DNA of 64,000 bases from a virus, in the IMG/VR virus record IMGVR_UViG_3300030117_006141, positions 15,616-79,615 of that record; one strand, given 5' to 3'. The notes under the pieces are model-generated. The model worked only from the letters and a program-made list of their open reading frames with translations. It was not told the DNA's origin and ran no database searches. Made by a program: the position numbers and the translations under genes. Numbering within the stretch: position 1 is the first letter of the stretch; every line of letters starts with the position of its first letter. This document shows positions 14,663 through 53,835 of this stretch, one piece after another.

Positions 14663-17600
14663 TTATTTTCCTGATTTACCACCTGCCCAAGATGTATTAG
14701 GTGGGCTTGCTGTTATCCAAACCATTTCATACCCATTATTTAACCAATATCCATTTGTTTGACCCTGAGGTCCTGGTTGTTGAGAACCTGGAATTATATC
14801 ACCCTTTTGACCGCCCATAACAGATACTTCTGCAGGCAATTCACCGGATAATAGCAACTCACCTTTACCTGCCTGGGCTTCTGCTGCGCTAAATAATAAA
14901 TTAGGATTTGTTTCAAAATATTCTACTACTGCATTTCCATCAGGTGTTTGGGAACTTGGTATATTGAAATCCGCTCCACGCATTTGAGCTCCCATGAATG
15001 ATAGTAATTGTATTCCAGTATTGTCATCAATATTAACTTCCGCAAATTTTATTGAACTAGAATACGCCTGTTTTTTATATGAACCCAGGTGTGCGCCAAA
15101 TTGACCATTGGGTGTTTTTCTATATGGTTGTTTAGGGTTTCTAGCATACTCAAATGGCCCTCTCCAAGATCCCGCATCTAAGTATAACATATGATTAGAT
15201 GCACTTATAGAAGAACTATAAAAATATTGTTTTGTTTTATAAATACTAGATACTCTCGATGCTGTAATTGCGGGATTGGTTCCTTCTCTAGAAATTATGC
15301 TAGCTAATTGTATAGATGAGGATCCTTTCGTATATGAATCTGTTCCTTTATGTATAACAGTTTGTGTTTGCAAATATCTAGAACCATCTTCTCTTATATT
15401 ATATCCATGTCTGCTATGGATAGGTCCAGTTCCAACAATCGACATTTCCCAAGGAACTCCTGCGCTTCCTGTTTTATATACTACATCATTTGAAGACGTA
15501 AAATGATAAATAATATTTTCCGTTTGGTTAATATTTTTTAAGCTTCCTGATGTCATAATGTATTCACCATATATTTTTGCATGTGATGATGTTACAAATA
15601 TATCATTAGGAGTTGTTGTATTATAATCCATTTTTATGGTAGCCGGATCCTTAAATTGGTCTTCCGACAGAACAGGTTGTGCTCTTTCAATTTTAGTTCT
15701 TTCTAATATTGTTGGCTCTATTAATAACCCTGATAATTCGTTAGCTTTACTCGGAATAAATTTATTAATTATCTTAAATAGAGAACCATCAAAAAACTCT
15801 ATCTGCCTGATATAATCCCAAAGATTTTTTCCTGATGAATATTTTTTAAAGTATTCGTTGCGAATATTATTTAATTGTGTATATTCATTTTTATATTGAT
15901 CTCTCGGATCGCCAACGAATTGATCTAATCGTGTTTGGCCTATTGAGTTTGCTATATCTATGTTTACGTCATTTGTTGGTGACAAATATATACCTATCTT
16001 ATTGGTATCTATAGGCGCAGTGTCTAACGATGATTGTTCCTTTCGAGTATGCCTTGAAAGTATTGAGTACTTTTCCCCATCAGCTGCAGTCTCTTGTGGT
16101 AATTTATTATCTTCTATTCTAATCTTATTACTAGTAGGACTGTTTCCAACCGTACTTGGCATATTAATATAATACACCTCTTCTACGTCTTCATAATCAT
16201 TACCATATTTACTAAATCCTGAACCTGAAGCGTATCCGTATTGTAATCCGCCGTTAGTAGACCAGTCTACATATTTATGAGCAGAAGGATGACTACTAGA
16301 TATTATCTTATTTCCCGATGAACTATGATCATATGTTTTTAAATCCGTTCCTAATCGGAATCTAGTTACTAAATCATAATATGATGACGAATAATTATTA
16401 CCAACAATACTTTGAGGATTTTGGATATGTTGATCAAATGCCCCGACTGATAGTCTATTTATCCACAATCTATATTCTTGCATTGACCCACTAAATCCAT
16501 AATCTTCCGGCCATGCCGCTTTAATGTCAGCAGGGCAACCATTTGTTGAATCCCATTCATCTGGTCTAAGTCCTATAGTTTGATTCTGGACGCCCGCTTT
16601 TATCCAATGATTTTGATTAACTGATCCGGATATTGTTCTGGTGCTAGCTGATACCGCATGCGTTATTCTACCCTGGGAATGATCTGCTGATTTTTTTGCA
16701 AATACGTCAAATGTTACAGGTTGTAATTTTTGGTGAGCTGGAGTTCCAGAACCTGTAGGCATTGTTCGTCTTAACATTATATTCCACCAATCTCCGTCGT
16801 ATAGCGGAGTCCAAGCTGTGGAGCAAGATACAATTCCCCCTTGGCCGTTATTCTCTATACTACCCGAAGCCCAGTATTTTAATCTTCCATATGGAGATTT
16901 ACCAACCTTATAAGTTAAATGTGCGGAAGAACTGTGTTCTAATACAAGACCTCTGCTGCTTTGGATATCCGCCCATAATACCTGATTCCTTTTGTATGAA
17001 GTTTTAATTCTCATTTCCATTGTATTTGGAAAGAAATTCATATGTGAATTAGGGTGGTGTTTATCTATTTTTGTCCAGTCATGTGTTATCTTATCTGTTC
17101 CTGAAAATCTTAGTGCGTTAGCATATCTATTGATCGCAAATTGGGAATTTTGACCTTCTAAATCCGGTCCACCAAATTCTACAATTCTTAAAATTGAAGA
17201 TGGTATACCATAACAATTTACAAGTGCTCTAATACTTCTTTCAGTTCCTTTCGTTTTTAATAACGAAGGTAAATTATTGATTATTCTATTCCATATCTCA
17301 GTCGTTCTATCATAACCCGAAATTGTAGGCAATGATCCTGATGTTGTTCCTAACCCAGTTTGTAATGTTGTTCCGGACTGATTTGTTCCTAGTGCATAGG
17401 ACCAAAGATCTTCATTAACGTTACCATTAAATAATTGGGTTCCCAATGATTGGGCTATATCATATAATAGTTCTTTAGGTGCACCAATATTTGGGTCCTC
17501 TTCCCTGCTATGAATACTTGTTAGATTTTGTATATAATTAAATAGGATATCATAATGCTGACCTAACATATGTGTATAGGTAAACATTGTACTATTTTGT

Positions 17601-34684: not shown

Positions 34685-35869
34685 TTAGTTTAATGGTTTA
34701 GGCCTTTTCTTATCGGCCTTTTTTTCTTGTACAGCATTTGATTTTTTTACAAATACCTTCTCTTGTTCTGGTTCTCCATATACTTTATAAGTATCAACCT
34801 CTTTCATTTCCAAACCTGACTTATCAGATGGATTGTCTTTGTTCTCAGGTATAAAAGATTCTAAGTCACTAAAATAATCTTCTTCACCATCACCCCACTT
34901 TTCTTTTAATTCATCCAAAGTATATGGTGTGTCAAATTCCAATCCAGGTGGGCAAGATGCTTTAACTTGCTCATCAAAATCCATCGCAGGCTCTGATGAA
35001 TATATAAACTCCTCACCATCTGGTATATCTTTAATATCATCTTTGTTGGTTACAACTCTTATACCATCTTTTTTAATTTGGGAAAATGCAAAGTTGGCTG
35101 CTACGACCATCGCAATCGCCAATGGATCAAATACAAATATAATTAATAATAAAAACCAATTAACAACTTGACCCATATCCTTACCAGTTGTTTCTGATAG
35201 ATATTTTAATGGACCCAGTTCTCTTTGTTCTTCATTACCAATTTCTAATTCTAGTAGTTCTGTATCAATCCTCATCACAGAATCCATTACAGCTTCTAAT
35301 CTTAGATTTACATTATCCCTATCAACAATTGTTGATTCTAATTCTTTTTGTAATGCTCTTCTTGTAGAACTAGACGTTGTTGTAATTACCTGCTGTGCAG
35401 TCTCATCCCAATAGGATACGGATGTCGGATTTGAAAGTGATGTCCTCAGATCAGATATAGTTGTATTTAATTGTGTCTTCTCTATATTAAGATCAGTCTT
35501 CTGTTCTTCAAACCTATTTTGTTTAGTTTGCAATACAGCTAATGACTTATCTAAAAATTCGGACTTGGTGGCAGTTTCTTGGTATGCCCCGGATAAGAAT
35601 CCGTATATACCACCACTCGTAATTACCATCAAAACAAATACAGCTATCGACAAATAAAATCGTAACCACTTATTAATAGTCCCCCAATATTGATATAATA
35701 AAGAAGCCACCACAAGTTTTGCAAACTCGAGTGACCCAGCCATTATGATTACTTGGGTTGATGCTCCCGCGAATAGTTTACTCAATCCGAACACAGAATA
35801 AAATGCCGCAGATCCAGAAACCAATAAAGCCGCGAGGCCTATTAATAATGGAAACAATCTTTTTTTCAT
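34685..35869 (-). CDS. Membrane protein with extramembrane coiled coil
   Basis: Three N-terminal TMs, coiled coil, then TM WFLLLIIFVFDPLAI. Confidence 0.6.
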   Translation of the reverse strand: MKKRLFPLLIGLAALLVSGSAAFYSVFGLSKLFAGASTQVIIMAGSLEFAKLVVASLLYQYWGTINKWLRFYLSIAVFVLMVITSGGIYGFLSGAYQETATKSEFLDKSLAVLQTKQNRFEEQKTDLNIEKTQLNTTISDLRTSLSNPTSVSYWDETAQQVITTTSSSTRRALQKELESTIVDRDNVNLRLEAVMDSVMRIDTELLELEIGNEEQRELGPLKYLSETTGKDMGQVVNWFLLLIIFVFDPLAIAMVVAANFAFSQIKKDGIRVVTNKDDIKDIPDGEEFIYSSEPAMDFDEQVKASCPPGLEFDTPYTLDELKEKWGDGEEDYFSDLESFIPENKDNPSDKSGLEMKEVDTYKVYGEPEQEKVFVKKSNAVQEKKADKKRPKPLN

Positions 35870-36986: not shown

Positions 36987-37583
36987 CTATTTTAGATCAA
37001 ATATGTAAGTATGCAATTCTTCTCCTTCTCTCATAGTAGTTCTATACTCATAAGAAGTTACGCCTCTCACAGCTTCAATCATTTCTTTTGCTTTATCTAA
37101 TATTGTTATCTCATTTGAAGACAAAGCTAATTTGTCATTTATAACAGTCATTTGGAGTGAACCTGTTTTAGAACCCGGGGTGTCAACAAGATCATCGGGT
37201 AATAACGATTTGCCCTTCTCCAGTCTATCCGTATAATAATGTTTTAGTTTAATAGACAATGATTCCCACCATTTTGCAAATTCGGGTTTAGAGTTCTTAA
37301 ACCATTCAGCTGCTTCATCGTCAGTCAATGCATCCCATACCTCATTAACGTCTGGTAGATTGTGTTCGAGGTGTTTGAACCAATTTATAATCCTATCATA
37401 AGCTTTCTTTTCACTAGATAACCCTGTTGTGTATATAGCATTATATGGTCTGGTAGGATCGAACGTCATCCGTTTATTTGGGTAAGACTTCTTTGGATTA
37501 ATATACTCAACAAAAGTCCAATCCTTATATTTGAATTTGTTTAACATATTATCTTCCCATGTTCCGTTATTATCTGTTATCAT
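36987..37583 (-). CDS. Hypothetical protein
   Basis: 198-aa ORF immediately downstream of the tmRNA. Confidence 0.55.
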   Translation of the reverse strand: MITDNNGTWEDNMLNKFKYKDWTFVEYINPKKSYPNKRMTFDPTRPYNAIYTTGLSSEKKAYDRIINWFKHLEHNLPDVNEVWDALTDDEAAEWFKNSKPEFAKWWESLSIKLKHYYTDRLEKGKSLLPDDLVDTPGSKTGSLQMTVINDKLALSSNEITILDKAKEMIEAVRGVTSYEYRTTMREGEELHTYIFDLK

Positions 37584-37599
37584 ACGCAGTAAATTTTAA

Positions 37600-37830
37600 C
37601 CTCTAGCCTCCGGGATTTTGACGACATGATCCCTGTTCGCCGTTGGGTCAGGGTGCCTATCAGGCAGCCATCGCCATTTCAACTTGTTCGCCAGTTGTTA
37701 CGGTGACCTTCCTTATATCCTTATCATCCTGTCAAATCCGATCATCCCCATGTCGTAAATATCTTTTAGTGGAGATGGAGGGAATCGAACCCTCGTCCAA
37801 GAATGTAGCTAATACAAGTACTAGCGGTCA
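37600..37830 (-). ncRNA. ssrA: Circularly permuted (two-piece) tmRNA
   Basis: Minus strand order: T-arm GAGGGTTCGATTCCCTC + CATCTCC-A (ends 37770), 20-nt intervening segment, 5' end GGGGATG...GGATTTGAC (starts 37749, G3-U70 pair), then tag GGC GAA CAA GTT GAA ATG GCG ATG GCT GCC TGA TAG (37692-37660) = GEQVEMAMAA. Outer ends approximate. Confidence 0.9.
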
Positions 37831-37841
37831 TATATAAATAT

Positions 37842-38084
37842 CTACTTCTTCCTTAATAATTTAACTAGTTTGGCACATTTTTCATATTCCTCTGTTCCGG
37901 TAAAGTAATCTATTAAACTATTAATAGCCTCTTTACCCTCCGGATCGTCTAACATCCAATACGCTTCAGGTAGGCTGTCCCAGTCATAACCTTTAATTAT
38001 AAAGTCATATGTATTACGCATTGCTTCATCAGCCAATTCCTGATCAAGCTCATTATTCTCCATGTCTTTATAAAAGTCTTCCAT
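37842..38084 (-). CDS. Small protein with UVR-like (UvrB/C) motif
   Basis: C-terminal LIDYFTGTEEYEKCAKL. Confidence 0.55.
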   Translation of the reverse strand: MEDFYKDMENNELDQELADEAMRNTYDFIIKGYDWDSLPEAYWMLDDPEGKEAINSLIDYFTGTEEYEKCAKLVKLLRKK

Positions 38085-43224: not shown

Positions 43225-43258
43225 ATCTTATTTATTTATATAATAAATATACGAACTA

Positions 43259-43381
43259 TTATTGACTTTTCCTACCGATTCCATAAAAAGTTATGAACAA
43301 TACTACGATAAATACTACTACCTTTAGTACTATTCTTAATTCGTTTACCTGTAGGCCTGGATCTCCGTTTAATTCAAACAT
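43259..43381 (-). CDS. Small membrane peptide (40 aa)
   Basis: Manual translation MFELNGDPGLQVNELRIVLKVVVFIVVLFITFYGIGRKSQ. Own promoter at 43403-43434. Confidence 0.4.
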   Translation of the reverse strand: MFELNGDPGLQVNELRIVLKVVVFIVVLFITFYGIGRKSQ

Positions 43382-43512
43382 ATTTATTAATTATTTATAA
43401 TATAAATATACGTAAAATATTTCACTTTTCCAAATATTTTCGCAGGTTTTTTCGGGTGGCGAGGCGAAAGTTATGAACCGCGCGGAGCGCGCCGTAAGCC
43501 CCGACGTATATA

Positions 43513-43710
43513 TTATTTATCATTATGATAATATCCTTCGGGTTCGTTCTCCATTCTTATAAATTCTCCGAGGGATACCATTACTTGAACATACTCATTA
43601 GGTTCATACATATCCTTAAATTTATTATTGGTAGTATGGTATTCAGTGATGTTATTATTAATAAGATCCTCCTTGAGAACCCATATAACTACTTGTTTAA
43701 TATTCGCCAT
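43513..43710 (-). CDS. Hypothetical protein
   Basis: 65-aa ORF. Confidence 0.45.
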   Translation of the reverse strand: MANIKQVVIWVLKEDLINNNITEYHTTNNKFKDMYEPNEYVQVMVSLGEFIRMENEPEGYYHNDK

Positions 43711-43964
43711 ATCTTATTTAATTCTTTCATTTGGTATTTTAATAAACTGGAACTACTTGATGAGAACAAGACCTCTCTACATTCATGGAATAAATCTGGT
43801 ATAGTATCTACATCATATTCGGCACTACTCATTTTATCAGGATTATCTATTATATACGACCATATACGTAATAACTTCATATATTGATTAGAGTTATTAT
43901 ATATAGGAGTACCTACAGACATAGGAGGTTTAATAGTATGATCTTGTTTAATATACTTACTCAT
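43689..43964 (-). CDS. Hypothetical protein
   Basis: 91-aa ORF. Confidence 0.45.
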   Translation of the reverse strand: MSKYIKQDHTIKPPMSVGTPIYNNSNQYMKLLRIWSYIIDNPDKMSSAEYDVDTIPDLFHECREVLFSSSSSSLLKYQMKELNKIWRILNK

Positions 43965-44139
43965 CTTTATTATCTTTACTACCTGTAATATTATTAAGAG
44001 CCTTCTCGAATAGGTCTCTAGTCTCCATATGGGGATGTTCGTCCCTTAGCCTATTAGTCTCTTTATCAAATTGCTTATTGACGCCAAGGCGATTCACTTC
44101 CTCCATAATGTGTATTAATTTATCTTCCCAATGTCCCAT
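43957..44139 (-). CDS. Hypothetical protein
   Basis: Likely start MGHWED at 44139. Confidence 0.45.
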   Translation of the reverse strand: MGHWEDKLIHIMEEVNRLGVNKQFDKETNRLRDEHPHMETRDLFEKALNNITGSKDNKDE

Positions 44140-44222
44140 TAATAGTTTCCTTCTCCGTAGGTATATACTTCCCACATACGCAAGACGACATACTACCTAC
44201 TATTATTAATATCGTTATTATT

Positions 44223-44414
44223 CTAATCATTATCTTTTATTTTATTCCAAACCCTTTCATGTATATAATACATTAAAGCACCTGTTACATTCATTATAAG
44301 AGCGTTCCATAAAGGACTGGATGTTAGCAAAGCTGCTAGGATCAAATAACTATTTATTATAGCTATTATTCTCCAACTTACCGTCTTAGAGAAACTCCTC
44401 TTTCTACTATCCAC
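44223..44414 (-). CDS. DUF2061-like membrane protein
   Basis: RKRSFSKTVSWRIIA...YYIHERVWNKI. Confidence 0.7.
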   Translation of the reverse strand: MDSRKRSFSKTVSWRIIAIINSYLILAALLTSSPLWNALIMNVTGALMYYIHERVWNKIKDND

Positions 44415-44695
44415 TATTTGTATTGTTTATACATTCTATTCATTGCAATTAAGTCTTCCTTAGCTACCCTATGATGTACTCCGTATCTCTTTATATCCCT
44501 TAATACACGCTTAACGAAACCACAAGGTCCATTCCTTTCCCTTAATAGAGAATATAACATTGTGATCTTTTCATATAGAGGATGGAATTCATGTGTTATA
44601 TCCCTAGCTACAGTATCTCCATAATCTCCTGGTCCACTAGTGTAGGTGTAGTATCTTCCTACCCTTCCTAGTTCTAAATCGCTCTTTGTTTCCAT
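44414..44695 (-). CDS. Hypothetical protein
   Basis: 93-aa ORF. Promoter at 44702-44733. Confidence 0.5.
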   Translation of the reverse strand: METKSDLELGRVGRYYTYTSGPGDYGDTVARDITHEFHPLYEKITMLYSLLRERNGPCGFVKRVLRDIKRYGVHHRVAKEDLIAMNRMYKQYK

Positions 44696-45077
44696 AGTTG
44701 ATTAATATACAAAATTTATTTTAATTATCCAACACTATTGTTGTTTTTCTTATACTCACACATACTATGTGTAATGTGTGTATGAAACCCATTTGGCAAA
44801 AAAATAGGTTCGCGATATGAATCGGTCAGTGCCTCAAAAAATTTATAAAAACTTTTGGGATGACCCGATAACCTCCCCCACGCGCGAGCTAGGAACTGAA
44901 GTAACCCCTACCCGGGTGAAGTAAATTAACTGTTCATAACTTTTCATATCTTTTTTTATTTATGAATACTTACGAACCACCCTATTGTTCATTACTATAA
45001 TAATGAAGTAGGAAAGGTGAAGTACTATACTGTCTATCTCTATATCGTATGTACTCCACCTCTAGAGTGTTAATCAC

Positions 45078-46229
45078 CTACTCCGCGTCCTCCATATCTT
45101 CGGTATTAAATAGATCCTCATTAGATCCATCGTCACAGTACTTCTGAACTAATTGCTTAACAAACGTTCTCTCACTATCTACTCCTCCGTCGTTACTATA
45201 TTGAGGGTATATAGTTATCTCTGCTGCCTCTCCTAATGTAAAGCCATCATATAGTAGTCCTGCTATCTCTACGGCAGTTCTAGTAGATACCCCAGACTCT
45301 ATACGTCCAGTCTCATTAGCTGCCTCTATACGTGTGTTAGTACATATCTCAGCTACATTATCTAATACCTTACTATCTACCCTTGGATATAATGATTGTA
45401 ATAGATCAGACTCTTCGTCCTTACCTAGTAGGTCTACCTCTATAATAGTAAATCTATCTACTAAGGCTTTATCCATTACTCTAGTACTAGTATATTCGTT
45501 ACCTATATTAGCAGTCGCTATAAAGGTTACTCCGTCAGCTACTTTAATAGTTTCCTGACCTTCAGATTCATCTAGTCTAAGATATCTCTGTCCATAGTCT
45601 AATACAGTCATTAGGATATTCCAAGCATCAGGATGTGCCCTTGATAACTCGTCCATTAGGATTACAGCGTTAGGTGTCTGGATCGCCTTAACGAATAAAG
45701 ACTCGCTAAAGTGTGTGCCCTTCTCCTTGTCGAATTGAACATTACCGATTAGGGTAGCACGAGGATCTTGAGTAGCTCCTAGATTGAAATAGAAGTCAGG
45801 TCGATCCAGACCATTAACTAATGCCTTTGCAGCTAGTGTTTTACCACATCCTGCCGGTCCTACCATCATAATATTCTTACCTCTTACGGCACTTCTTATA
45901 AGGTATTTCCACTTTAACTCAGGCATTTTTAGTGTATTAGGCTTTAGGTCATAAGACGTATTAATGAAATTCATTACCTCTAATTGCTCTTGAGGCACTT
46001 TTTCCGTCTTAGCTGACTCACGATTATGAGCTTTTACAGCCTTATTATACACTGACATTGGTACTTGTTTCCATGTAGTACCTGTAAATTCGATGGCATT
46101 TCCATTATCAGCCACCTTAGATTTCATTTGCGAATACAGTTTTCCTGGTAAACTAGATACAAAATTACCTGTTGCATCCTTTACTTGATACTTACCATCT
46201 ACTCTTTCGACTTTAAATACATTTAACAT
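45078..46229 (-). CDS. MoxR/CobS-like AAA+ ATPase
   Basis: Walker A GPAGCGKT, Walker B ILMDELSRA, FIATAN, MDKALVDRF, STR. Confidence 0.9.
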   Translation of the reverse strand: MLNVFKVERVDGKYQVKDATGNFVSSLPGKLYSQMKSKVADNGNAIEFTGTTWKQVPMSVYNKAVKAHNRESAKTEKVPQEQLEVMNFINTSYDLKPNTLKMPELKWKYLIRSAVRGKNIMMVGPAGCGKTLAAKALVNGLDRPDFYFNLGATQDPRATLIGNVQFDKEKGTHFSESLFVKAIQTPNAVILMDELSRAHPDAWNILMTVLDYGQRYLRLDESEGQETIKVADGVTFIATANIGNEYTSTRVMDKALVDRFTIIEVDLLGKDEESDLLQSLYPRVDSKVLDNVAEICTNTRIEAANETGRIESGVSTRTAVEIAGLLYDGFTLGEAAEITIYPQYSNDGGVDSERTFVKQLVQKYCDDGSNEDLFNTEDMEDAE

Positions 46230-46259
46230 ACACTCTATTTTTTAATTTAACACTCTTTA

Positions 46260-46396
46260 ATAAGAACAGGACCGGGCGCAATTGAGATTTTATGCTAGAT
46301 TAAATTTCTCCTTTTAGCTGTTAGACTCGTCGTCGTGAGCTCCTTTGGCGCATTATTGAGATTTTGCTATTGAATCCTCCCGGATCCCTTTCTTAT
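46260..46396 (-). ncRNA. Candidate structured leader/sRNA upstream of the AAA+ gene
   Basis: Closing stem ATAAGAAAGGGATCCGGG / CCCGGTCCTGTTCTTAT. Two internal copies of TAGCA..AAAATCTCAAT..TGCGCC. Starts just downstream of promoter 46405-46436. Confidence 0.55.
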
Positions 46397-46404
46397 TTAT
46401 ATTA

Positions 46405-46765
46405 TAAATATACGAACTTTTTCGCACATATACAACCTTTTTCTCAGTTATTTTTATAAAGTTATGAACAATCCGAATATAATAACCACTACTCCGAGGG
46501 TCATATATAGCCTATTCATCTCTTTTTTTCCCTGGTTTAGGTCATCTTCTGTGACTAATGGTGGGAATGGGTTTCTATAGTTTGTAATCATAACTTTAAA
46601 TCTTTATATCTTATATATAAAGATACGTAAAATTTTCCAATTATCCAAATTTTTTGACAGGTTTTTTCAGATTTTTTTGTAATTGTTCATAACTTTTTAT
46701 TATTATTATAGGAATAGTCCTCCCAATATAATATAAATATACGAAAAATAAACGTAATTTCCAAA
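46405..46765 (-). promoter_or_regulatory. Three tandem host-type promoters
   Basis: GTTG-N20-TATATTTA (46405-46436), TTTG-N20-TATCTTTA (46618-46649), TTTG-N20-TATATTTA (46734-46765). Confidence 0.75.
46455..46592 (-). CDS. Small membrane peptide (45 aa)
   Basis: Manual translation MITNYRNPFPP...LGVVVIIFGLFITL. Promoter at 46618-46649. Confidence 0.4.
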
Positions 46766-47248
46766 TTTTTTTGCATAAATCGGCCTGCGATCTACCCTAT
46801 CTTAGACAGTCTAGGACAGGCAATAACACGGGTTGGGTGAATAAGTATACGTCTGGAAGGAGATCTCGCAGTATATCGCCTCTAAATAGCCTTAAATTGA
46901 ATGGATTATAGGACAGGAAGTCCCACCATAAAAAAAAGTTACGAACAATTATTCATAACTTTGTATAGGGTTTTGCTGGGAGGAAAAATGAAAAGGGAGG
47001 GAGGCATGCGTGTGTCAAAATATCAAAAATCTTACATACTAGATACCAAAAATACGTAGATAAGTATCTGGTTTATCATATTATCGTATACATTGTAATT
47101 AGGGATCCTAAATAGCTAGGAGGAATATAGCTATCATCATTATGATATAGATGGCTGGTGTTATGTCTATCTTATTAGTCTCGTTCATGTATATAAATAG
47201 GCAGAATGGTTGCTAGGCTGATGACCTAAACATGAAATTTACATGAAT

Positions 47249-47389
47249 TTAATGGTTCGGGTTCTTCAGGTATTCTCTTATTATATAGATACAGTATGTA
47301 AGGGCTGGTGATCCCATAGCTAATAACCATAGGATTGAGGGATGTCCTTCCCCACATGCTCCGGTAAAGTGTCTTAAAAATTCTATCAT
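47249..47389 (-). CDS. Small membrane peptide (46 aa)
   Basis: Manual translation MIEFLRHFTGACGEGHPSILWLLAM...; overlaps the stop of the upstream ORF (ATGA). Confidence 0.45.
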   Translation of the reverse strand: MIEFLRHFTGACGEGHPSILWLLAMGSPALTYCIYIIREYLKNPNH

Positions 47390-47568
47390 TTGTGTACGTC
47401 CATAAAGTTCTTAACTAATACATATAGTGCCCAAGGCCATGCTAATACTATGAAGAGTCGTTCTCTCCATCCTAGGTAATGCTTTGGGTTATCAGGTTCT
47501 AGGTATAACCAATGTAATATATCTACTATACCCATAAATACTACACCTAATATTAAATATGCTGTCAT
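47386..47568 (-). CDS. Small membrane protein
   Basis: Two hydrophobic segments, WP motif. Confidence 0.5.
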   Translation of the reverse strand: MTAYLILGVVFMGIVDILHWLYLEPDNPKHYLGWRERLFIVLAWPWALYVLVKNFMDVHK

Positions 47569-47814
47569 TTCTTATTTCTTTCTTTTTCTTCTAACTTCTT
47601 TATATTATCTAATAACTTATCATTACTGTCATCACTCATATAACTGGATAGGATTGCCACTACTCCAAATGAGATGATTCCTATTGTTATTATTATTAAT
47701 ATATTTTCCATTATTTTCTCTTTGTGTTCTTATCTATATGTCTTTCTATCTGACTCGATATATACATTCCTAACGCTACTCCTGCGCATAAGATAGTTAA
47801 ATGTGATATTACCA

Positions 47815-48027
47815 TTACTTCCATGATTTAATTATTTCCTTTAGTTTATCTATTAATTCTAATACTTCCTCGGGTTCCATCGTTATCGCACAACATACGT
47901 TAACGTTCTCCTCTATTTCCTCGAGTAATTTTAATGCTTCTTCTTTCATATTATACGGACAATTAGTACATCCATTCTTACAACAATAACCTCTATTTAA
48001 TAAGAATTCCCTGCTTAAAGGTTCCAT
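47815..48027 (-). CDS. DUF5522-like Cys-rich protein
   Basis: FLLNRGYCCKNGCTNCPY. Confidence 0.6.
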   Translation of the reverse strand: MEPLSREFLLNRGYCCKNGCTNCPYNMKEEALKLLEEIEENVNVCCAITMEPEEVLELIDKLKEIIKSWK

Positions 48028-48278
48028 TATATATCAAGATCATCATCTACTTGTCTAATGATATGGTCGTAAACGAATTTACTCCAACATTTCTTTATTT
48101 TATTATATAGTCTTCTCATTTATCTATACTCAAATATAATACGATAGATGCCACAAATAAACAACCACATAAATACAATACTAATCCCATTTATCTTGAT
48201 CTTTCTTTGCTTTATATAACAATAGTCCTATTATAGTAGGGATGGCTAACATTGTTACCACCATTAATATATCTTCTA

Positions 48279-48752
48279 TTATTCCCATATTGTATCTCCA
48301 TCATTACCTATCCACATCTTCTCTTCATCGGACTCTAATAAATCATATAAATCTGATCTATTCCAATCTCTGTCGGAAGGTTCATATTGTCCATACTCAC
48401 TCTTACCTTCTTTACCATGATACTCTTCTTTAACATGATATACATGCCATATTGTATCTCCGTAGATATCTAACCATATTTTTCTTCCATCCTTATAGAA
48501 GGAGGAAAGGAAGGTGGTATCTTCCCATTCTTCATACACACCATCACCATCGATATCTATTATATTACCATAACTTACCGAATCCACCGCAATAACGCTG
48601 TCAAGCGTAGGGGCGAGATTTTTCGGGGCTTCCGGTTTTCGATGAGCCTCGCACGAATGCTTGCAACTTGTCATCATAATTAGCATCATAGTAAAAAATA
48701 CTATTGCAATTAATAAAAATACCTGTACCGAATTTTTTAATAACTTTCTCAT
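48279..48752 (-). CDS. Putative lipoprotein
   Basis: Basic N-terminus, hydrophobic stretch, lipobox-like MTSC. DIDGDG Ca-binding-like loop. Confidence 0.55.
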   Translation of the reverse strand: MRKLLKNSVQVFLLIAIVFFTMMLIMMTSCKHSCEAHRKPEAPKNLAPTLDSVIAVDSVSYGNIIDIDGDGVYEEWEDTTFLSSFYKDGRKIWLDIYGDTIWHVYHVKEEYHGKEGKSEYGQYEPSDRDWNRSDLYDLLESDEEKMWIGNDGDTIWE

Positions 48753-48825
48753 AATCTTATCTTATTTATTTATATAATAAATATACGTAAAATAAATGAC
48801 TTATCCAAATATTTTCGCAGGTTTT

Positions 48826-48981
48826 TTAGAAAGACCAACCAAAATTTAAGACAATGAATCTACCCTTACCTGAGCTGAAATCTACCTTAAATTCTAGAAT
48901 TGTAAATCTACCTAGTCTAATCTCTAATGAGATAACGTCGTCTTGTTTGTTACCTTTTCTCCAAGAATTAATCCAATTCAT
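48826..48981 (-). CDS. Small hypothetical protein (51 aa)
   Basis: Manual translation MNWINSWRKGNKQDD...FIVLNFGWSF. Confidence 0.45.
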   Translation of the reverse strand: MNWINSWRKGNKQDDVISLEIRLGRFTILEFKVDFSSGKGRFIVLNFGWSF

Positions 48982-48985
48982 AATT

Positions 48986-49348
48986 TTACTCCTTTTTATC
49001 TGTTATTGTTTCTATTTCTAACTGACTATCTTCGTTAGTATATTTATCTTTTACTATATCTGCATCTTGTAACATATCTTCTAATGACCAACCATCAGGT
49101 CCATCGATATCATCAAGTGTTCCTTCGTTATATTTATCATCTATTAATTGTATGATTTCATCTTCCGATAATCCCTTAAACTCTGGATAATCCTCTGTGT
49201 TGATCTCCAATACTCTCCAAGATGTATTTGTATACCACTCTGTCTTTATTAATTTTAATTTTGTCATAACTATCTCATTTCCATAATCTCCCGCCTCTCT
49301 GGATCTTATTATTCCTGTATCGGGATTTCGTTCATAAATTTTTGCCAT
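48986..49348 (-). CDS. Hypothetical acidic protein
   Basis: 120 aa, N-terminal KIYERNPDTG. Confidence 0.5.
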   Translation of the reverse strand: MAKIYERNPDTGIIRSREAGDYGNEIVMTKLKLIKTEWYTNTSWRVLEINTEDYPEFKGLSEDEIIQLIDDKYNEGTLDDIDGPDGWSLEDMLQDADIVKDKYTNEDSQLEIETITDKKE

Positions 49349-49369
49349 AAGTAACCGTGCTATATTATA

Positions 49370-49696
49370 TTAGTCTTCTATTGTTAAACTACCTTTATTC
49401 TTCCAACTGTCCCACGCCTTATCAAATCGTCTATCCGTTGATGATATAACACCATTTACACGATCTATATATTCCTTCCTCTGTTCATCTAATTTTCTGT
49501 AGATATCATTTTGAACTTCGTTTCTTTCCCTAACACAATCCTCTATAATTCTTTTGATCTCTACATCATGATCTATAAGTTCCATTCTTAGATCATCTAC
49601 TTCGTTAATTTTTCTTTCCAACCTAACCACTCCAAAAAACGCGTAGCATATTGCACACACTAGTAAAGTAATCAGCACTGTTAAAATTATATCCAT
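49370..49696 (-). CDS. Membrane-anchored coiled-coil protein
   Basis: N-terminal TM, coiled coil. Bracketed by a 16-bp inverted repeat. Confidence 0.55.
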   Translation of the reverse strand: MDIILTVLITLLVCAICYAFFGVVRLERKINEVDDLRMELIDHDVEIKRIIEDCVRERNEVQNDIYRKLDEQRKEYIDRVNGVISSTDRRFDKAWDSWKNKGSLTIED

Positions 49697-49704
49697 ATCT
49701 TTTC

Positions 49705-49928
49705 TCCGTATTATTTAAGCACGGCTACTTATGTTAAAAATAAAGGCTCTTGGTCGGTTAAATAAGCCAATTAGCATTGTGAGGACTTTTAACCTTAACA
49801 TCCTATACCACGTGAAGGTGGCCTTTGTCATAGGACTACGGAAGTCTGATTGGTGTGAGGCTGCTTTCAGCTGATGCCGGTCTTAGCCATACTGACACAC
49901 TCTTTTTCACGTCCCTTCCGTATTATTT
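49705..49928 (-). ncRNA. Candidate structured cis-regulatory RNA / ncRNA
   Basis: GC-richer intergenic segment with nested stems TACGGAAG/CTTCCGTA, GTGTG/CACAC, CCTAT/ATAGG, CCAC/GTGG, ATGTTAA/TTAACAT, GGTTAAA/TTTAACC. Confidence 0.5.
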
Positions 49929-49932
49929 TTTA

Positions 49933-50118
49933 TTATTCAGGGCGCTTGCTATCATACTCTTCCTGAACTTCATCGAATTTTTCTTTCCATGCAGCTTGTT
50001 CTATAGGACTCATTCCCTCAAACCAATCACTCCAGTCTCCTGCTTTAGTATCCCTATATACTTTCCATATATTAGATTTCAACTGTTCTATTAAGAATTT
50101 ATTCGATTTTATTTCCAT
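49933..50118 (-). CDS. Hypothetical protein
   Basis: 61-aa ORF. Confidence 0.45.
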   Translation of the reverse strand: MEIKSNKFLIEQLKSNIWKVYRDTKAGDWSDWFEGMSPIEQAAWKEKFDEVQEEYDSKRPE

Positions 50119-50121
50119 ATA

Positions 50122-50508
50122 CTATTTCCCTTTGTCTAAATAATTCTGCCACCAACCAGTGAATGCAAATAATGCAGTAAAACTACCAAACATATATAAT
50201 ACGAACCAAGGTGTGTAAGTCATATCGCCATGCCATATAACTGGTGCTGCCATAACAACCATCCATAATAAAAAGAAAATAAGTGGGTTTCTTTCCATTT
50301 TCTTTTCAATTTTAATTGTTCTTTCCGTATTGATTAATCTAGATAATGCATCCTGCATATCCTTACCATAACATGGTTGTGTATGCTTAGTTCCATCCTT
50401 TTCCAATATCGTTACTTGATATTTTAGATAACCTGGATTAGATTTACTTTTCTCAATCAATCTGCAGTCTACTGCTCTTCTTCTAGTGTATTTACTCTTT
50501 TTACTCAT
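50122..50508 (-). CDS. Membrane protein
   Basis: Two C-terminal TMs. Promoter at 50523-50554. Confidence 0.55.
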   Translation of the reverse strand: MSKKSKYTRRRAVDCRLIEKSKSNPGYLKYQVTILEKDGTKHTQPCYGKDMQDALSRLINTERTIKIEKKMERNPLIFFLLWMVVMAAPVIWHGDMTYTPWFVLYMFGSFTALFAFTGWWQNYLDKGK

Positions 50509-50553
50509 AACTTATTTTTTATTTAATATACAACTTATTTTTCAATTATCCAA

Positions 50554-51432
50554 CTATAAACAGGAAAAATATCGTTCTCCTCTGTCACATAGTATTGTTA
50601 TAGCATTCTGTTTATCATTATCCCTTAGCCATTCAAATGCTGCTTTAACATTAGCTCCCGCGCTTATTCCTACAAATAGACCTTTTTTTAAAGCCAAATG
50701 TTTTGCGACTGCTTTTGCACAATCTGTTTTTACTGTCTTTATCTCGTCTACGAAATCTAGATTTACTAGGAATTTGGATCCATCTCCTATTCCCTGTATC
50801 CCATGAAGTCCTGGTTGACCTCCTGACATGACCGCACTCTCCTCCGGCTCTACGGCAATAATCTTCGTATCCTTCCAGAACTCTTTGAAGCGTTTTCCGC
50901 AACCCATTAAAGTTCCTCCTGTGCCTGTACCTAAAATAAATGCGTCTGGCGCTGTTAATTTTTTCCATTGTTTCCAAATTTCTATACTTGTCGTATTATA
51001 ATGTGCTAATATATTTAATGGATTATGAAATTGATTGCAATTAAACCAATTGTTTTCTTTACATAACCTATCTCTTAATTCTATAGCTCCATCAAAATCC
51101 CCATCCTCTACTTCTATCAATTCTGAGCCGTAATACTCAAACATCTTTTTCCTTTCGACGCTCATATTAGAAGGCATAACAATTTTCATTCTATACCCTC
51201 TTTCTGCCGCTAACATTGCAAATGCTATTCCAGTGTTACCTGATGTTGCTTCGCAAAGAGTATCACCTCTTTTTATTTTATTATTTGCTTCTGCATCATT
51301 TATTATATAAGTTGCCATTCGATCTTTAACAGATCCTCCCGGATTCATAAATTCAGCTTTGCCCCAGACTGTCAGCTCTCCTAATGTAATAGGAATTAGT
51401 GGTGTGTTGCCAACATAACTGGATAGTCTCAT
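50554..51432 (-). CDS. cysK: Cysteine synthase (PLP-dependent, CysK/CysM family), auxiliary metabolic gene
   Basis: VGNTPL, NPGGSVKDR (PLP lysine), EATSGNTG, GTGTGGT, HGIQGIG. Likely start MRLSSY at 51432. Confidence 0.93.
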   Translation of the reverse strand: MRLSSYVGNTPLIPITLGELTVWGKAEFMNPGGSVKDRMATYIINDAEANNKIKRGDTLCEATSGNTGIAFAMLAAERGYRMKIVMPSNMSVERKKMFEYYGSELIEVEDGDFDGAIELRDRLCKENNWFNCNQFHNPLNILAHYNTTSIEIWKQWKKLTAPDAFILGTGTGGTLMGCGKRFKEFWKDTKIIAVEPEESAVMSGGQPGLHGIQGIGDGSKFLVNLDFVDEIKTVKTDCAKAVAKHLALKKGLFVGISAGANVKAAFEWLRDNDKQNAITILCDRGERYFSCL

Positions 51433-51616
51433 TTTACGTTTTCCCTGAACCTTTATAACGTTTACTATTATAAATATGTCGCACCAGTGCAAATAGAGCA
51501 GCACAAATCGCTACCATAAATCCACCTATTATATTATATATAAAATAAGCTCCTCGCATACCCCAATATATAAATCCTAGACATAATATTATACTTATCA
51601 TTTAATTTTATTTTTG

Positions 51617-51690
51617 TGGAGAATATCGGAGTCGAACCGATGACCTCTTGGATGCAAACCAAGCGCTCTAGCCAGCTGAGCTAATTCCCC
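51617..51690 (-). tRNA. tRNA-Ala(UGC)
   Basis: GGGGAATTAGCTCAGCTGGCTAGAGCGCTTGGTTTGCATCCAAGAGGTCATCGGTTCGACTCCGATATTCTCCA. G3-U70, anticodon TGC, CCA not fully encoded. Confidence 0.95.
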
Positions 51691-52067
51691 ATTATTTCTA
51701 ATTTAATTTCTTTTACATGTTTACAATCAGTATGTGGTCTATACATAGCAGATGGGCAAGAACACTTTAAGGATCCTGTGGCATCTGCTTTAATAATATA
51801 TTCCTTATCACCTTTACTAGATAATACCTTATATTCTTTATCAGAGCTAACCTTAACCTCTTTTTCTTTAGGTTCCCATGGTATATGTTTAATATCTTCT
51901 CTCTTAACATCTTCATCAGGACCTAATTCATACCAAGCAGGCATTATATATCTTTTACCATTTAATTCCATAATACCTGGTGGATATATACTATCTATAA
52001 GAGTATAAGTCCTCTCGGGCTTATCCATACCATATTGAAACCATTCTGATACTACTACCTTAGCCAT
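51681..52067 (-). CDS. SWIM zinc-finger protein
   Basis: CSCPS...CKHV. Last codons overlap the tRNA 5' end. Confidence 0.7.
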   Translation of the reverse strand: MAKVVVSEWFQYGMDKPERTYTLIDSIYPPGIMELNGKRYIMPAWYELGPDEDVKREDIKHIPWEPKEKEVKVSSDKEYKVLSSKGDKEYIIKADATGSLKCSCPSAMYRPHTDCKHVKEIKLEIMGN

Positions 52068-52068
52068 A

Positions 52069-52365
52069 TTATAGAAACATTTTATGAACCTCTTTTACTG
52101 CCCATTTACCATTATCCTTCTTAACCAACCATCTATATCTTCCATCAAACACTCTTTTACGTGGTTCTTTTAAGCTTTTTAAGTGGTGACAAAAACTACC
52201 ACCTCTATTTTTAACAGGATCATATTCCTTATACTCATGTATATCTTGGTGATAAAATCTATTCATCTCTGTGAATGTTGCTTCACCTAAAAATTCCACA
52301 TAATCTAATATAGATGATGTAATTTCTCCCGTCTTCCACTTTACTACTCCGTTAACTGTTATCAT
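52069..52365 (-). CDS. Hypothetical protein
   Basis: 98-aa ORF with own promoter (52392-52423). Confidence 0.5.
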   Translation of the reverse strand: MITVNGVVKWKTGEITSSILDYVEFLGEATFTEMNRFYHQDIHEYKEYDPVKNRGGSFCHHLKSLKEPRKRVFDGRYRWLVKKDNGKWAVKEVHKMFL

Positions 52366-52448
52366 ATTATTTTATTTTTTTATTTATAATATAAAAATAC
52401 GTAAATTAATTGAATTATACACGCTTTTTCATAAAAAGTTATGAACAA

Positions 52449-53735
52449 TTATACTGTTCTACCATTTTCGTAAATATGTTTTACTGTTGGAAATCTTAAT
52501 GATATTCCACCATCTTGATTCTTTGTCTCTTCAAAGTATTGAACCGTAATAGTCTTACCCAAGATCTTACTATGATCTTTACCGAACTCTTTTCTTTGTT
52601 CTAAAGAGAATCCTGATCCAACTCCAACCTGATGACCTTTATGTTTAATCATAATTTGGCTTAAAGCATTTATAGTCTTTTCTTTACCTTCTGATACTAT
52701 TCTAATATCTCCATTAGTAGCTCCCATAACCGTATATTCTTCATCATGGAACTTCTTAACCTTTAATAGATTATTAGATCTCTTACCTTCATATGCTACA
52801 TTCTTTCTTAACATAACACCTTCCCAATTATTATCAGCAGACATTTGAACCCATGTATCAAAATGATCATCACCTGTTATAACAAATTGCTGTAGATATT
52901 CTATATACGTAGAATCGGTTCTACTAATCCAAGATCTTAACATATGTAATCTATCTTCTAAATTAATAGATTCATCACCATTAAATACATTTAAAGATAC
53001 CATATCAAATATCTTAAATACTGGATTCTCGATAGTGTGATCTTTCTTTTTAATCTGTTTCATCACACTTTGAAAATCTTCATTACCATTTTCATCTACT
53101 AAACATATCTCACCATCAAATACAACATTAATAATATTAGTATCTTCAATAGCTTTCTTTACATTATCTAATGTAGTAAATTCATTTCCTTGTCTAGAAT
53201 ATAATTTACAATTACCTTCTTCATCGACAATAGCTAAACATCTTACACCATCTAATTTTCTAGAAGCATACCAAGTATCATTCCAATCTACTAACTTAGG
53301 ATTATATGAATTAGCTAAAGCTACTTTGAATTCAGGTATTAAATTAGGTATAACCTTATTAATAACAGATTCAGATGCTCTTAATTCTATATTTCTATCT
53401 AATATATTATAGATTAAATCGGCATAATCTTTATTAGCCGTTACGAAACCATTTACCAATGCTATAGCATCATGACCTGTATATTTTCTATTTCTCAGAT
53501 CGTCTAACATATCAAAAATATTTTCATATACATTATACTTAAATAATCCAGAATTTTTCTTACAATTCTTACTTGTAACATGATATTTGAAATATGGATT
53601 ATAAGTGTAGTGTAATACTTTTGTAATAAACGAATCATCTTTTATAGATTTGATGATTTCTTTTTTCTCATTCAGAGATGATGTAGATTTCATTTTATCT
53701 ACAAATTCCTGTAACCTTTTTAATTCTTTTAGCAT
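52449..53735 (-). CDS. lig: ATP-dependent DNA ligase
   Basis: KLDGVR, FDGEI, IFD, EGVMLR, LLKVK, GVGSGF, SLRFP. Likely start MLKELK at 53735. Confidence 0.93.
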   Translation of the reverse strand: MLKELKRLQEFVDKMKSTSSLNEKKEIIKSIKDDSFITKVLHYTYNPYFKYHVTSKNCKKNSGLFKYNVYENIFDMLDDLRNRKYTGHDAIALVNGFVTANKDYADLIYNILDRNIELRASESVINKVIPNLIPEFKVALANSYNPKLVDWNDTWYASRKLDGVRCLAIVDEEGNCKLYSRQGNEFTTLDNVKKAIEDTNIINVVFDGEICLVDENGNEDFQSVMKQIKKKDHTIENPVFKIFDMVSLNVFNGDESINLEDRLHMLRSWISRTDSTYIEYLQQFVITGDDHFDTWVQMSADNNWEGVMLRKNVAYEGKRSNNLLKVKKFHDEEYTVMGATNGDIRIVSEGKEKTINALSQIMIKHKGHQVGVGSGFSLEQRKEFGKDHSKILGKTITVQYFEETKNQDGGISLRFPTVKHIYENGRTV

Positions 53736-53770
53736 ATCTATATCTTTAATTAACACTCTTATTTATAATA

Positions 53771-53835
53771 TAAATATACGTAAAATAATTGAATTATCCA
53801 AATATTTTAACAGGTTTTTTCAAAAGTTATGAACA
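53771..53835 (-). promoter_or_regulatory. Host-type (Bacteroidota -33/-7) promoter plus upstream TGTTCATAAC box; exemplar of a 15-copy family
   Basis: TTTG-N20-TATATTTA. Same spacing at 10900, 34131, 36164, 39105, 43244, 43403, 44702, 46405, 46618, 46734, 48778, 50523, 52392, 54592. Confidence 0.8.

Follow-up and report, generated by a model that had tools for sequence, protein, structure and literature searches.

A compact, circularly permuted tmRNA gene without pseudoknot 1 in a large marine phage, one of a phage-borne family that is probably adapted to Bacteroidota hosts

Circularly permuted tmRNA genes are taught as a feature of three bacterial lineages and of organelles, and the betaproteobacterial type of two-piece tmRNA is said to go back to Sharkady and Williams in 2004. 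In the 2025 tmRNA database, permuted genes are sorted as alpha, beta or cyano (PMC11915505). Function was demonstrated for the two-piece tmRNA of Caulobacter by Keiler et al. 2000, as cited in PMC9004378 and PMC3968760. Pseudoknot 1 is near-universal in tmRNA, its helix 4 being missing in only two sequences of the 2005 collection of Burks et al., in which the shortest complete tmRNA with a tag frame is 250 nt (PMC1168896). This pseudoknot was long considered necessary for tagging in E. coli, yet it can be replaced by a hairpin (PMC3968760), so it is better regarded as typical of tmRNA than as strictly defining it.

Two-piece tmRNAs are already known from phages. Among 133 unique phage tmRNAs, ARAGORN classed 53 as two-piece, all but three of which (50/53) came from marine or aquatic phages (PMC9004378). 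Members from phages of Bacteroidota are annotated as "tmRNA" and not as a lineage of their own, and current schemes place them under alpha, beta or cyano, or simply under "tmRNA". In the literature that we searched, which took in few subscription journals, we found no description of a permuted lineage without pseudoknot 1 in Bacteroidota phages, and none of the form of crAss-like tmRNA. The genomes of Bacteroidota themselves have 24,380 tmRNAs of the standard form and 48 permuted ones (PMC11915505, supplementary table), so the permuted form is not the norm of these bacteria.

Here we describe a permuted tmRNA gene in a 64,000-nt stretch of viral DNA (the window), positions 15,616 to 79,615 of the 79.6-kb IMG/VR record IMGVR_UViG_3300030117_006141, for which CheckV completeness is 43%. 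All genes are on one strand and the GC content is about 33%. The encoded tail proteins, a gp25-like protein and a baseplate wedge protein, correspond to myovirus-type baseplate genes; other products are an SbcC-like nuclease subunit, a primase, an ATP-dependent ligase, Hsp20, a MoxR-like ATPase, a VWA protein and a PLP-dependent enzyme. Four public runs, from two studies, contain 50% or more of the words sampled from the stretch; all are marine metagenomes, and no RNA run is among them.

ARAGORN called a permuted tmRNA at 37569-37861 (-), with the tag GEQVEMAMAA followed by two stops, and, as the only other RNA gene of the window, a tRNA-Ala(UGC) at 51616-51690 (-). The Rfam release 15 model RF04321 (tmRNA_permuted), which expects the 3' half of the acceptor stem upstream of the 5' half, matched 37660-37819 (-) over model positions 1-213 with 62.3 bits (E 1e-9) against a gathering score of 47 bits, which with the permuted order places the gene in that family. 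The standard one-piece model, RF00023, reached 39.4 bits, below its cut-off of 47, and aligned to the 3' part alone. The tRNA-like domain is complete, with a 7-bp acceptor stem bearing G3-U70, a T arm with a GGUUCGAUUCC-type loop and a discriminator A; the features of a tag frame are likewise present, namely a resume codon, a hydrophobic ..AA end and a stop codon within helix 5. Pseudoknot 1, a mark of tmRNA in general, is lacking. As judged by both programs and by the layout of the locus, the window carries a genuine compact, circularly permuted tmRNA gene without pseudoknot 1, and an earlier sequence-only reading that had proposed such a gene is confirmed in this.

The gene lies on the (-) strand, and its parts follow one another in the order that this reading had described: the acceptor piece, a 20-nt spacer and then GGGGAUG. 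The acceptor piece (37770..37830; 61 nt plus CCA) was delimited by ARAGORN, Rfam and pair counts, its 5' end being placed from a promoter-like motif and from the point at which covariation stops. Along it lie the 3' strands of helices 2c (UGACC, 37830-37826), 2b (CUUGUAU, 37818-37812) and 2a (CAUUCU, 37805-37800), the T arm (GAGGG-UUCGAUU-CCCUC, 37794-37778), the acceptor 3' strand (CAUCUCC, 37777-37771) and the discriminator A (37770), after which the DNA encodes CUA, not CCA. The intervening segment of 20 nt (37750..37769), presumably removed at maturation, is not conserved in sequence among relatives. The coding piece, of about 149 nt (37601..37749, the 3' limit being approximate), starts at G1 (37749) with the acceptor 5' strand GGGGAUG (37749-37743), followed by a D-loop-like region containing UUUGAC (37742-37731) and by the 5' strands of helices 2a (AGGAUG, 37730-37725), 2b (AUAUAAG, 37718-37712) and 2c (GGUCA, 37708-37704). 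The two inter-piece helices that had been proposed earlier, AGGAUG/CAUUCU and GGUCA/UGACC, match in sequence and are supported by covariation; the third, helix 2b, had been overlooked.

Between helix 2c and the resume codon there is a linker of 11 nt, CCGUAACAACU (37703-37693). The tag reading frame (37657..37692), identified by ARAGORN and from the sequence, begins with the resume codon GGC (37692-37690) and runs for ten codons, GEQVEMAMAA, to the tandem stops UGA and UAG (37662-37657), which are enclosed by helix 5 (UGCCU/AGGCA, 37666-37662 / 37658-37654); the tag and its hairpin are as first read. On the 3' side of the tag lies an H-type pseudoknot (37612..37643), the only one of the RNA, consisting of stem 1 (ACGGC/GUCGU, 37643-37639 / 37625-37621) and stem 2 (GGGAU/AUCCC, 37633-37629 / 37616-37612). 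The mature RNA would be made up of an acceptor piece of ~64 nt, with CCA added, and a coding piece of ~150 nt, ~213 nt in total. The sequence-only reading was right about this size and about the absence of pseudoknot 1, but it had missed the pseudoknot 3' of the tag.

To place this structure in a comparative setting, relatives were collected with a pattern that combines the T arm with the acceptor strands in permuted order (29 specified nt), which found 21 contigs in IMG/VR, one of which, L017, was of the same compact type; a metagenome scan yielded four further relatives. In a set of six sequences, 98.9% of the cells were paired and 11 pairs showed double changes, against 0-2 in controls in which the partners were slid. 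The larger alignment, A2, comprises nineteen distinct sequences from marine phage contigs that share a common layout. Here 99.1% of the pair cells are standard and 19/45 pairs have changed on both sides, as against 1-4 when partners were shifted by 1-3 columns, with compensatory changes in seven of the eight helices. Covariation is seen in the T stem and in the acceptor stem. G3-U70, which had been noted as intact, is present in the window and in 19/19 relatives. Every pair of pseudoknot stem 2 (5/5) has changes on both sides. Stem 1 hardly varies and is partly fixed by the search pattern, so it has no independent support. Columns fixed by the patterns were uninformative; these are stem 1 of the pseudoknot and, for the first set, also the T arm and the acceptor arm.

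The distance from helix 2c to the resume codon is 9-14 nt in all 19 marine relatives. Since these few nucleotides are all that lies between helix 2 and the resume codon, pseudoknot 1 is absent. The tags of the 19 relatives follow the pattern G[EAT]QV[ES][MLY]AMAA, with synonymous codon changes. Energy-based co-folding recovered the acceptor stem and the T arm and missed helix 2, and the energy gain was no better than with shuffled acceptor pieces; the case for helix 2 is therefore that of its covariation. Two other pairings were considered and rejected. Pairing of ACGACAUG in the intervening segment with CAUGUCGU in the pseudoknot loop is possible in the window and L017, whereas L037 and L040 do not allow it. 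A second UGACC, 3' of the tag, is not conserved as a partner of GGUCA, while the partner in the acceptor piece covaries in L040.

A promoter-like motif, AUAUUUAUA (37833..37841, (-)), ends a few nucleotides short of where pairing in the acceptor piece begins, and it is kept upstream of the tmRNA in relatives. Within the window, 18 of the 22 copies of ATATTTAT(A/T) are on the gene strand and 13 of these 18 are intergenic as read from the ORF table, 11% of the window being non-coding. ATATTTATW is no more frequent in the window than expected by chance (22 copies vs 16 +/- 4), so the evidence for the motif consists of its bias in strand and position. Six copies, from 43250 to 53777, have TTTGGA about 18 nt upstream, a spacing that fits either a sigma-70 layout or the -33/-7 layout of Bacteroidota. 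The copies before tail and baseplate genes and the copy before the tmRNA are without an upstream box of the TTTGGA type; because this absence is shared, the label "late-type" that had been given to the motif directly upstream of the tmRNA is reasonable. We infer that AUAUUUAUA acts as a promoter. A scan at the window's gene for promoters and terminators returned no sigma-70 consensus promoter and no terminator. In two relatives, L080 and L150, a hairpin resembling an intrinsic terminator immediately follows the pseudoknot on its 3' side and so suggests that the 3' end of the coding piece is near the pseudoknot.

The anatomy, conservation and covariation of the gene are observed here; its processing, charging and tagging would follow established tmRNA biology. 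A single transcript is expected to begin just past AUAUUUAUA, so that the 5' end of the acceptor piece is probably the transcription start. RNase P would cut 5' of G1 (37749), and the acceptor piece would be trimmed after the discriminator A (37770); because CUA is encoded, CCA would need to be added by the host enzyme. The tRNA-Ala of the phage is followed by CAA and so likewise needs CCA addition. The pieces of 64 nt and ~150 nt would be held together by the 7-bp acceptor stem and the 18 bp of helix 2 (2a, 2b and 2c), charged with alanine by the host alanyl-tRNA synthetase through G3-U70, and delivered to stalled ribosomes by host SmpB and EF-Tu. We looked for an SmpB gene in this record and in five relatives (80-100% complete among them) and found none; the RNA would then have to use the SmpB of the host. 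Translation is predicted to resume at GGC, 11 nt past helix 2c and with no intervening pseudoknot 1, to add the tag (A)GEQVEMAMAA and to terminate at UGA UAG in helix 5. The role put forward by the sequence-only reading, that the RNA stands in when host tmRNA or tRNAs are cleaved by defence nucleases, is speculative.

The gene is one member of a widespread family and not a singular event. A second pattern, drawn from the coding part (UUUGACAG, 26-46 nt, AAC(U/C)GGC, 50-80 nt, AUGUCGU) and leaving no room for pseudoknot 1, matched at least 113 IMG/VR contigs, against a rough estimate of a handful of chance matches. The window has every feature by which this pattern delimits a compact permuted family. 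In 60 of these loci all the tmRNA calls made by ARAGORN were permuted, and some copies of the family were missed by this program. The architecture of the window's gene thus recurs in at least 113 IMG/VR contigs. 

Further members are to be found among named phages. A T-arm match led to RefSeq features of crAss-like phages that are annotated as "tmRNA, SsrA" and start with the T arm; ARAGORN calls these permuted, and RF04321 gives 60.3 and 46.3 bits. The carriers named are cr125_1, cr114_1, cr52_1, cr115_1, cr60_1 and cr50_1. The RNA of cr125_1 has a three-part helix 2, no pseudoknot 1, a linker ending in CAUAACU before GGC, a pseudoknot like that of the window (AACGGC ... AAUGUCGUAAAA) and an intervening segment of about 166 nt; it matches eleven RefSeq crAss-like records and three records of uncultured human-faecal phages. 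The cultured Maribacter phage Panino (PP540027; host Maribacter halichondriae, Flavobacteriaceae) also has a gene that is permuted by ARAGORN (RF04321, 62.2 bits), with UUUGAC, CUA after the discriminator, a Gly resume codon, a 39-nt intervening segment and no room for pseudoknot 1; in its record a false ORF is annotated over the tmRNA, and the paper on Panino refers to one SsrA gene and says nothing of its form.

The RNAs of the crAss-like phages and Panino, with RF04321 scores of 46-62 bits, are like that of the window in having the acceptor piece first, UUUGAC, a three-part helix 2, no pseudoknot 1 and a short, A-rich linker that ends in AACU before a Gly resume codon. The distance from helix 2 to this codon is similarly short in the crAss-like clade, and the crAss-like copies share the pseudoknot after the tag (AACGGC ... 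AUGUCGU). They differ in the spacer (69-166 nt in crAss-like phages, where it sometimes holds a tRNA gene, and 39 nt in Panino, against 20 in the window), in their longer and dissimilar tags (GNFYVTDYTRIAA, GNTSYVTDYTRLVA, GKVMNVSFAPTVRQFA) and in their carriers, which are podoviruses, whereas the phage of the window has myovirus-type baseplate genes. Their records annotate "tmRNA" only. In a joint alignment of 64 distinct permuted copies, drawn from IMG/VR and from the other loci collected, for each of which the upstream T stem and acceptor complementarity were verified, two clades emerged, one marine with spacers of 16-21 nt and one of gut crAss-like phages with spacers of 69-166 nt. Since the same architecture is found in IMG/VR contigs, RefSeq crAss-like phages and Panino, it is not the invention of one phage. 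We regard the locus as probably a working two-piece tmRNA gene of a large marine phage, belonging to a phage-borne family adapted to Bacteroidota hosts.

When the RNA is set against the described lineages, none of the lineage models reaches its cut-off in the window: alpha_tmRNA (RF01849) scores 26.7 bits over positions 82-177 of 355 (cut-off 50), beta_tmRNA (RF01850) 49.1 bits over positions 76-168 of 331 (cut-off 84) and cyano_tmRNA (RF01851) 44.4 bits over positions 39-136 of 288 (cut-off 70), and all three match the tRNA-like core only. With the two-piece tmRNA of Alphaproteobacteria (Caulobacter, RF01849) the window shares the permuted gene, G3-U70 and the tag frame, and the joining of the pieces by acceptor stem and helix 2 that is seen there is predicted here as well; the alphaproteobacterial RNA, however, has retained pseudoknot 1, and its D-loop region reads CGAC; the window has neither. 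The two-piece tmRNAs of marine myophages (OM43 phage Melnitz, pelagimyophages and cyanophages; PMC9004378) are phage-encoded, permuted and aquatic like that of the window, but they group with alpha, beta/gamma or cyanobacterial hosts, while the window passes no lineage model. The tmRNA of Melnitz carries a glutamine riboswitch, whereas Rfam found no riboswitch at the window's tmRNA.

The signatures of the RNA point instead to the one-piece tmRNAs of Bacteroidota (Bacteroides, Porphyromonas, Tannerella, Prevotella and Cytophaga), which share UUUGAC and GGC-GAA with the window and have tags of nine or ten residues with an ALAA or AMAA end, as the window does; the T stem of Bacteroides and Porphyromonas, GAGGG/CCCUC, is also that of the window. 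The alignment of Burks et al. 2005 (PMC1168896, additional files) contains six rows from Bacteroidota; each of them has u-UGaC, a state seen 12 times as against 149 for u-CGaC, and all six resume with GGC GA, with tags such as GENNYALAA and GETNYALAA and, in Cytophaga, GEESYAMAA; the alphaproteobacterial and cyanobacterial two-piece rows have CGAC. The one-piece RNAs nevertheless have the normal order, pseudoknot 1 and more pseudoknots, and a length of about 400 nt, in all of which the window differs. The link to Bacteroidota drawn by the sequence-only reading is upheld both by these signatures and by the related copies that crAss-like phages and a cultured phage of Flavobacteriaceae carry.

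Since the signatures point to descent from a Bacteroidota-type tmRNA, we lean slightly towards a permutation event separate from the alphaproteobacterial, betaproteobacterial and cyanobacterial ones. This event may, with about an even chance, have been a further permutation in a phage-borne Bacteroidota-type ssrA that led to a minimal tmRNA of ~210 nt without pseudoknot 1, which then spread among unrelated phages (marine myovirus-like phages, gut Crassvirales and flavobacterial podoviruses). The earlier suggestion of an independent permutation in a phage is accordingly retained as to a separate event, which is favoured, and not as to its being the work of a single phage, the family being present in at least 113 IMG/VR contigs.

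The principal alternative, which we consider unlikely, is that the family descends from a phage-borne betaproteobacterial two-piece tmRNA that lost pseudoknot 1 and whose tag and D-loop became adapted to Bacteroidota. The tRNA-like core is identical in three other IMG/VR groups, which are of the beta type and match RF01850 over its full length with 93-173 bits, and in these freshwater phage contigs the T arm, acceptor stem and gene order are identical to those of the window. The 29 identical nucleotides (T arm, acceptor strands and order) were, however, the search criterion itself, and conservation of the tRNA-like domain is common to all tmRNAs. Of the three lineage models, beta gives the highest score in the window (49.1 bits, with cyano at 44.4 and alpha at 26.7), but that match is confined to the tRNA-like core and does not reach the cut-off of 84. 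When the coding piece is used as a sequence profile, one beta-type group scores 13-19 bits and the crAss-like copies 18-23, so that the two are separated weakly. The beta-type copies retain pseudoknot 1 and differ further in having UUCGAC, an acceptor piece that is longer in its 5' part, and tags of the form AND... or GTYN...; UUUGAC, GGC-GAA and AMAA, on the other hand, point to the one-piece tmRNAs of Bacteroidota.

As to the host, the phage is likely to infect a member of the Bacteroidota, because its tmRNA family is shared with crAss-like phages and with Maribacter phage Panino; Crassvirales are described as infecting Bacteroidota (PMC6235969). The neighbourhood of the tmRNA (hsp20, a 394-aa ORF, the MoxR-like ATPase and the VWA protein) is conserved in related marine contigs, so these tmRNA relatives belong to the same kind of phage. 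The distant nearest relatives are Microcystis phage Mel-JY01 (as labelled), the closest isolate by baseplate wedge and MoxR-like ATPase at 47-51% identity, Flavobacterium phage immuto, the second-closest at 41%, and an uncultured 484-kb phage. None of the three has the window's type of tmRNA, and in Mel-JY01 and immuto no tmRNA match exceeded any cut-off; in the huge phage LR756508 the tmRNA gene is of the standard one-piece kind. There was no match to the 4-kb neighbourhood by blastn among 50,697 phage records, blastn of the RNA alone matched T arms only, a search for related loci with the flanking 198-aa ORF found none, and the exact T-arm/acceptor pattern in permuted order had no match in 185,579 species genomes. 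Searches by tblastn with the DNA ligase and a 717-aa structural protein gave no pointer to the host. The best match of the PLP-dependent enzyme (72%) is on a 15-kb contig binned with an archaeal MAG; this contig is probably a stray phage contig, so the match is uninformative on the host.

That the host is not one of the Bacteroidota but, for example, a cyanobacterium, the Bacteroidota-like marks being convergent or inherited from an earlier host, seems to us quite improbable. The closest isolate is indeed labelled as a Microcystis phage, a Shine-Dalgarno core upstream of 36% of the genes against a background of 13% is ambiguous, being neither clearly high nor absent, and a GC content of 33% does not separate the candidate hosts. 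A tmRNA must, however, suit the SmpB, synthetase and proteases of its host, and this one bears the marks of Bacteroidota, belongs to a family common to Crassvirales and a cultured Flavobacteriaceae phage, and is unlike the two-piece tmRNAs of marine picocyanobacteria, which have UUUCGAC and frames that do not start with GGC GAA; the second-closest isolate, moreover, infects Flavobacterium.

A similarly small probability attaches to a main function other than ribosome rescue for proteolysis, in which the RNA competes with host tmRNA for SmpB, or adds an altered degron that host proteases read differently, to the benefit of the phage. There is a precedent in the minimised phage tmRNA relative of mycobacteriophage DS6A, whose tRNA-like-domain RNA is reported to inhibit host tmRNA on expression in E. 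coli (PMC11915505, PMC4131195). That RNA is without a tag frame, however, whereas the window's RNA keeps a conserved one, and its coding part, helix-5 stops and resume context are conserved although a pure decoy would not need them. The tags of crAss-like phages end in RLVA, RIAA, GIAA or RLSA, unlike the ALAA of Bacteroides, and no phage SmpB was found, both of which would suit such a role; the tag of the window nonetheless retains a hydrophobic ..AMAA end, as in Cytophaga hutchinsonii. Finally, although the coding piece folds by itself no more stably than shuffled sequence (z -0.62), it is scarcely credible that a functionless relic or false call would show compensatory changes in 7/8 helices, a conserved tag, an invariant G3-U70 and synteny across many contigs.

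A working, Bacteroidota-adapted two-piece tmRNA, if this reading is true, would represent an additional phage-borne lineage of permuted tmRNA, linked to Bacteroidota and common in the crAss-like phages that are very abundant in the human gut, and would alter the three-lineage picture. For annotation, it means that lineage-specific models miss the family, that ARAGORN misses some of its members and that gene callers overlay them with false ORFs. On this reading lytic phages would carry a tmRNA of their own and yet depend on the SmpB of the host. As a set of conserved tmRNAs of ~210 nt in which the resume codon comes directly after helix 2, it may serve as a natural test of pseudoknot 1, and would bear on the setting of the reading frame and on what trans-translation minimally requires.

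Near the tmRNA gene of the window lies a 394-aa ORF (34685-35869, minus strand); 10 of 18 related loci have this ORF beside their tmRNA as well, with identities of 51-83%. Searches with this ORF gave no match in Pfam, PHROG or PDB, and its look-alikes in the Atlas were viral hypothetical proteins only. The window also encodes a tRNA-Ala(UGC) (51616-51690, minus strand) that is followed directly on its 3' side by CAA rather than CCA, so that CCA addition by the host is needed here too. The gene for a PLP-dependent enzyme (50554-51504, minus strand; PALP, 231 bits) has a copy of 72% identity on L042. This contig, 15 kb long and assigned to a 'Candidatus Nitrosopelagicus' MAG, is probably a mis-binned phage contig.

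Six genes of the window are preceded on the minus strand (at 43250, 43409, 46411, 46740, 48784 and 53777) by a long promoter-like consensus, composed of TTTGGA, about 18 nt and TATATTTAT(A/T)(T/A)TATAAATAA. This consensus is compatible with a sigma-70 layout and with the Bacteroidota TTTG-N20-TAnnTTT(G) layout alike. The tail and baseplate genes are preceded by a shorter promoter-like form that does not have the upstream box.

The tmRNA of the cultured Bacteroidota phage Calle_2, a Cellulophaga phage (MT732433; L049, 872-1233), also has UUUUGACAGG; its gene is one-piece (RF00023, 86.6 bits), and the tag predicted for it by ARAGORN is an odd one of 22 residues. In the record of Maribacter phage Panino (L164), a CDS annotated as a 'hypothetical protein' (670-819) falls within the tmRNA gene on the opposite strand and is probably a false gene call across the tmRNA.

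Beta-type two-piece tmRNAs were also observed on IMG/VR phage contigs, among them L016, L018, L021, L022 and L030. These phage copies have a single tRNA-like core in common, but their tags fall into three families that are unrelated to one another (ANDELFALAA, ANDAFYGEDRLAA and G(T/A)YN(T/A)PLALAA). Four of the copies (L018, L019, L024 and L025) were missed by ARAGORN.

Two IMG/VR gut contigs of ~75-104 kb, L053 and L062, carry a tmRNA coding piece that begins GGGGCUAAACGG; the tags encoded are GNTSYVMDYTGIAA and GNTSYVTDYTRLVA. ARAGORN made no tmRNA call on either contig, and no acceptor piece was found in the 450 nt upstream of the coding pieces; either the halves are far apart in the genome, or else the acceptor half cannot be recognised.

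Two crAss-like phages have an RNA matched by Rfam upstream of their permuted tmRNA gene: RAGATH-22 in cr50_1 (L050, 554-720, 155.6 bits) and RAGATH-9 in cr125_1 (L051, 985-1153, 154.4 bits), the latter match directly adjoining the annotated tmRNA. Among crAss-like copies, the intervening segment can contain a tRNA gene, such as the tRNA-His in L103, and a tRNA or tRNA-like minihelix can come directly after the pseudoknot; such arrangements are seen in L103 (70-512), in L050 (1573-1644), and 3' of the pseudoknot in L072 and L053. With such elements within or beside the tmRNA, the ends of the crAss-like pieces could be set by tRNA-processing enzymes.
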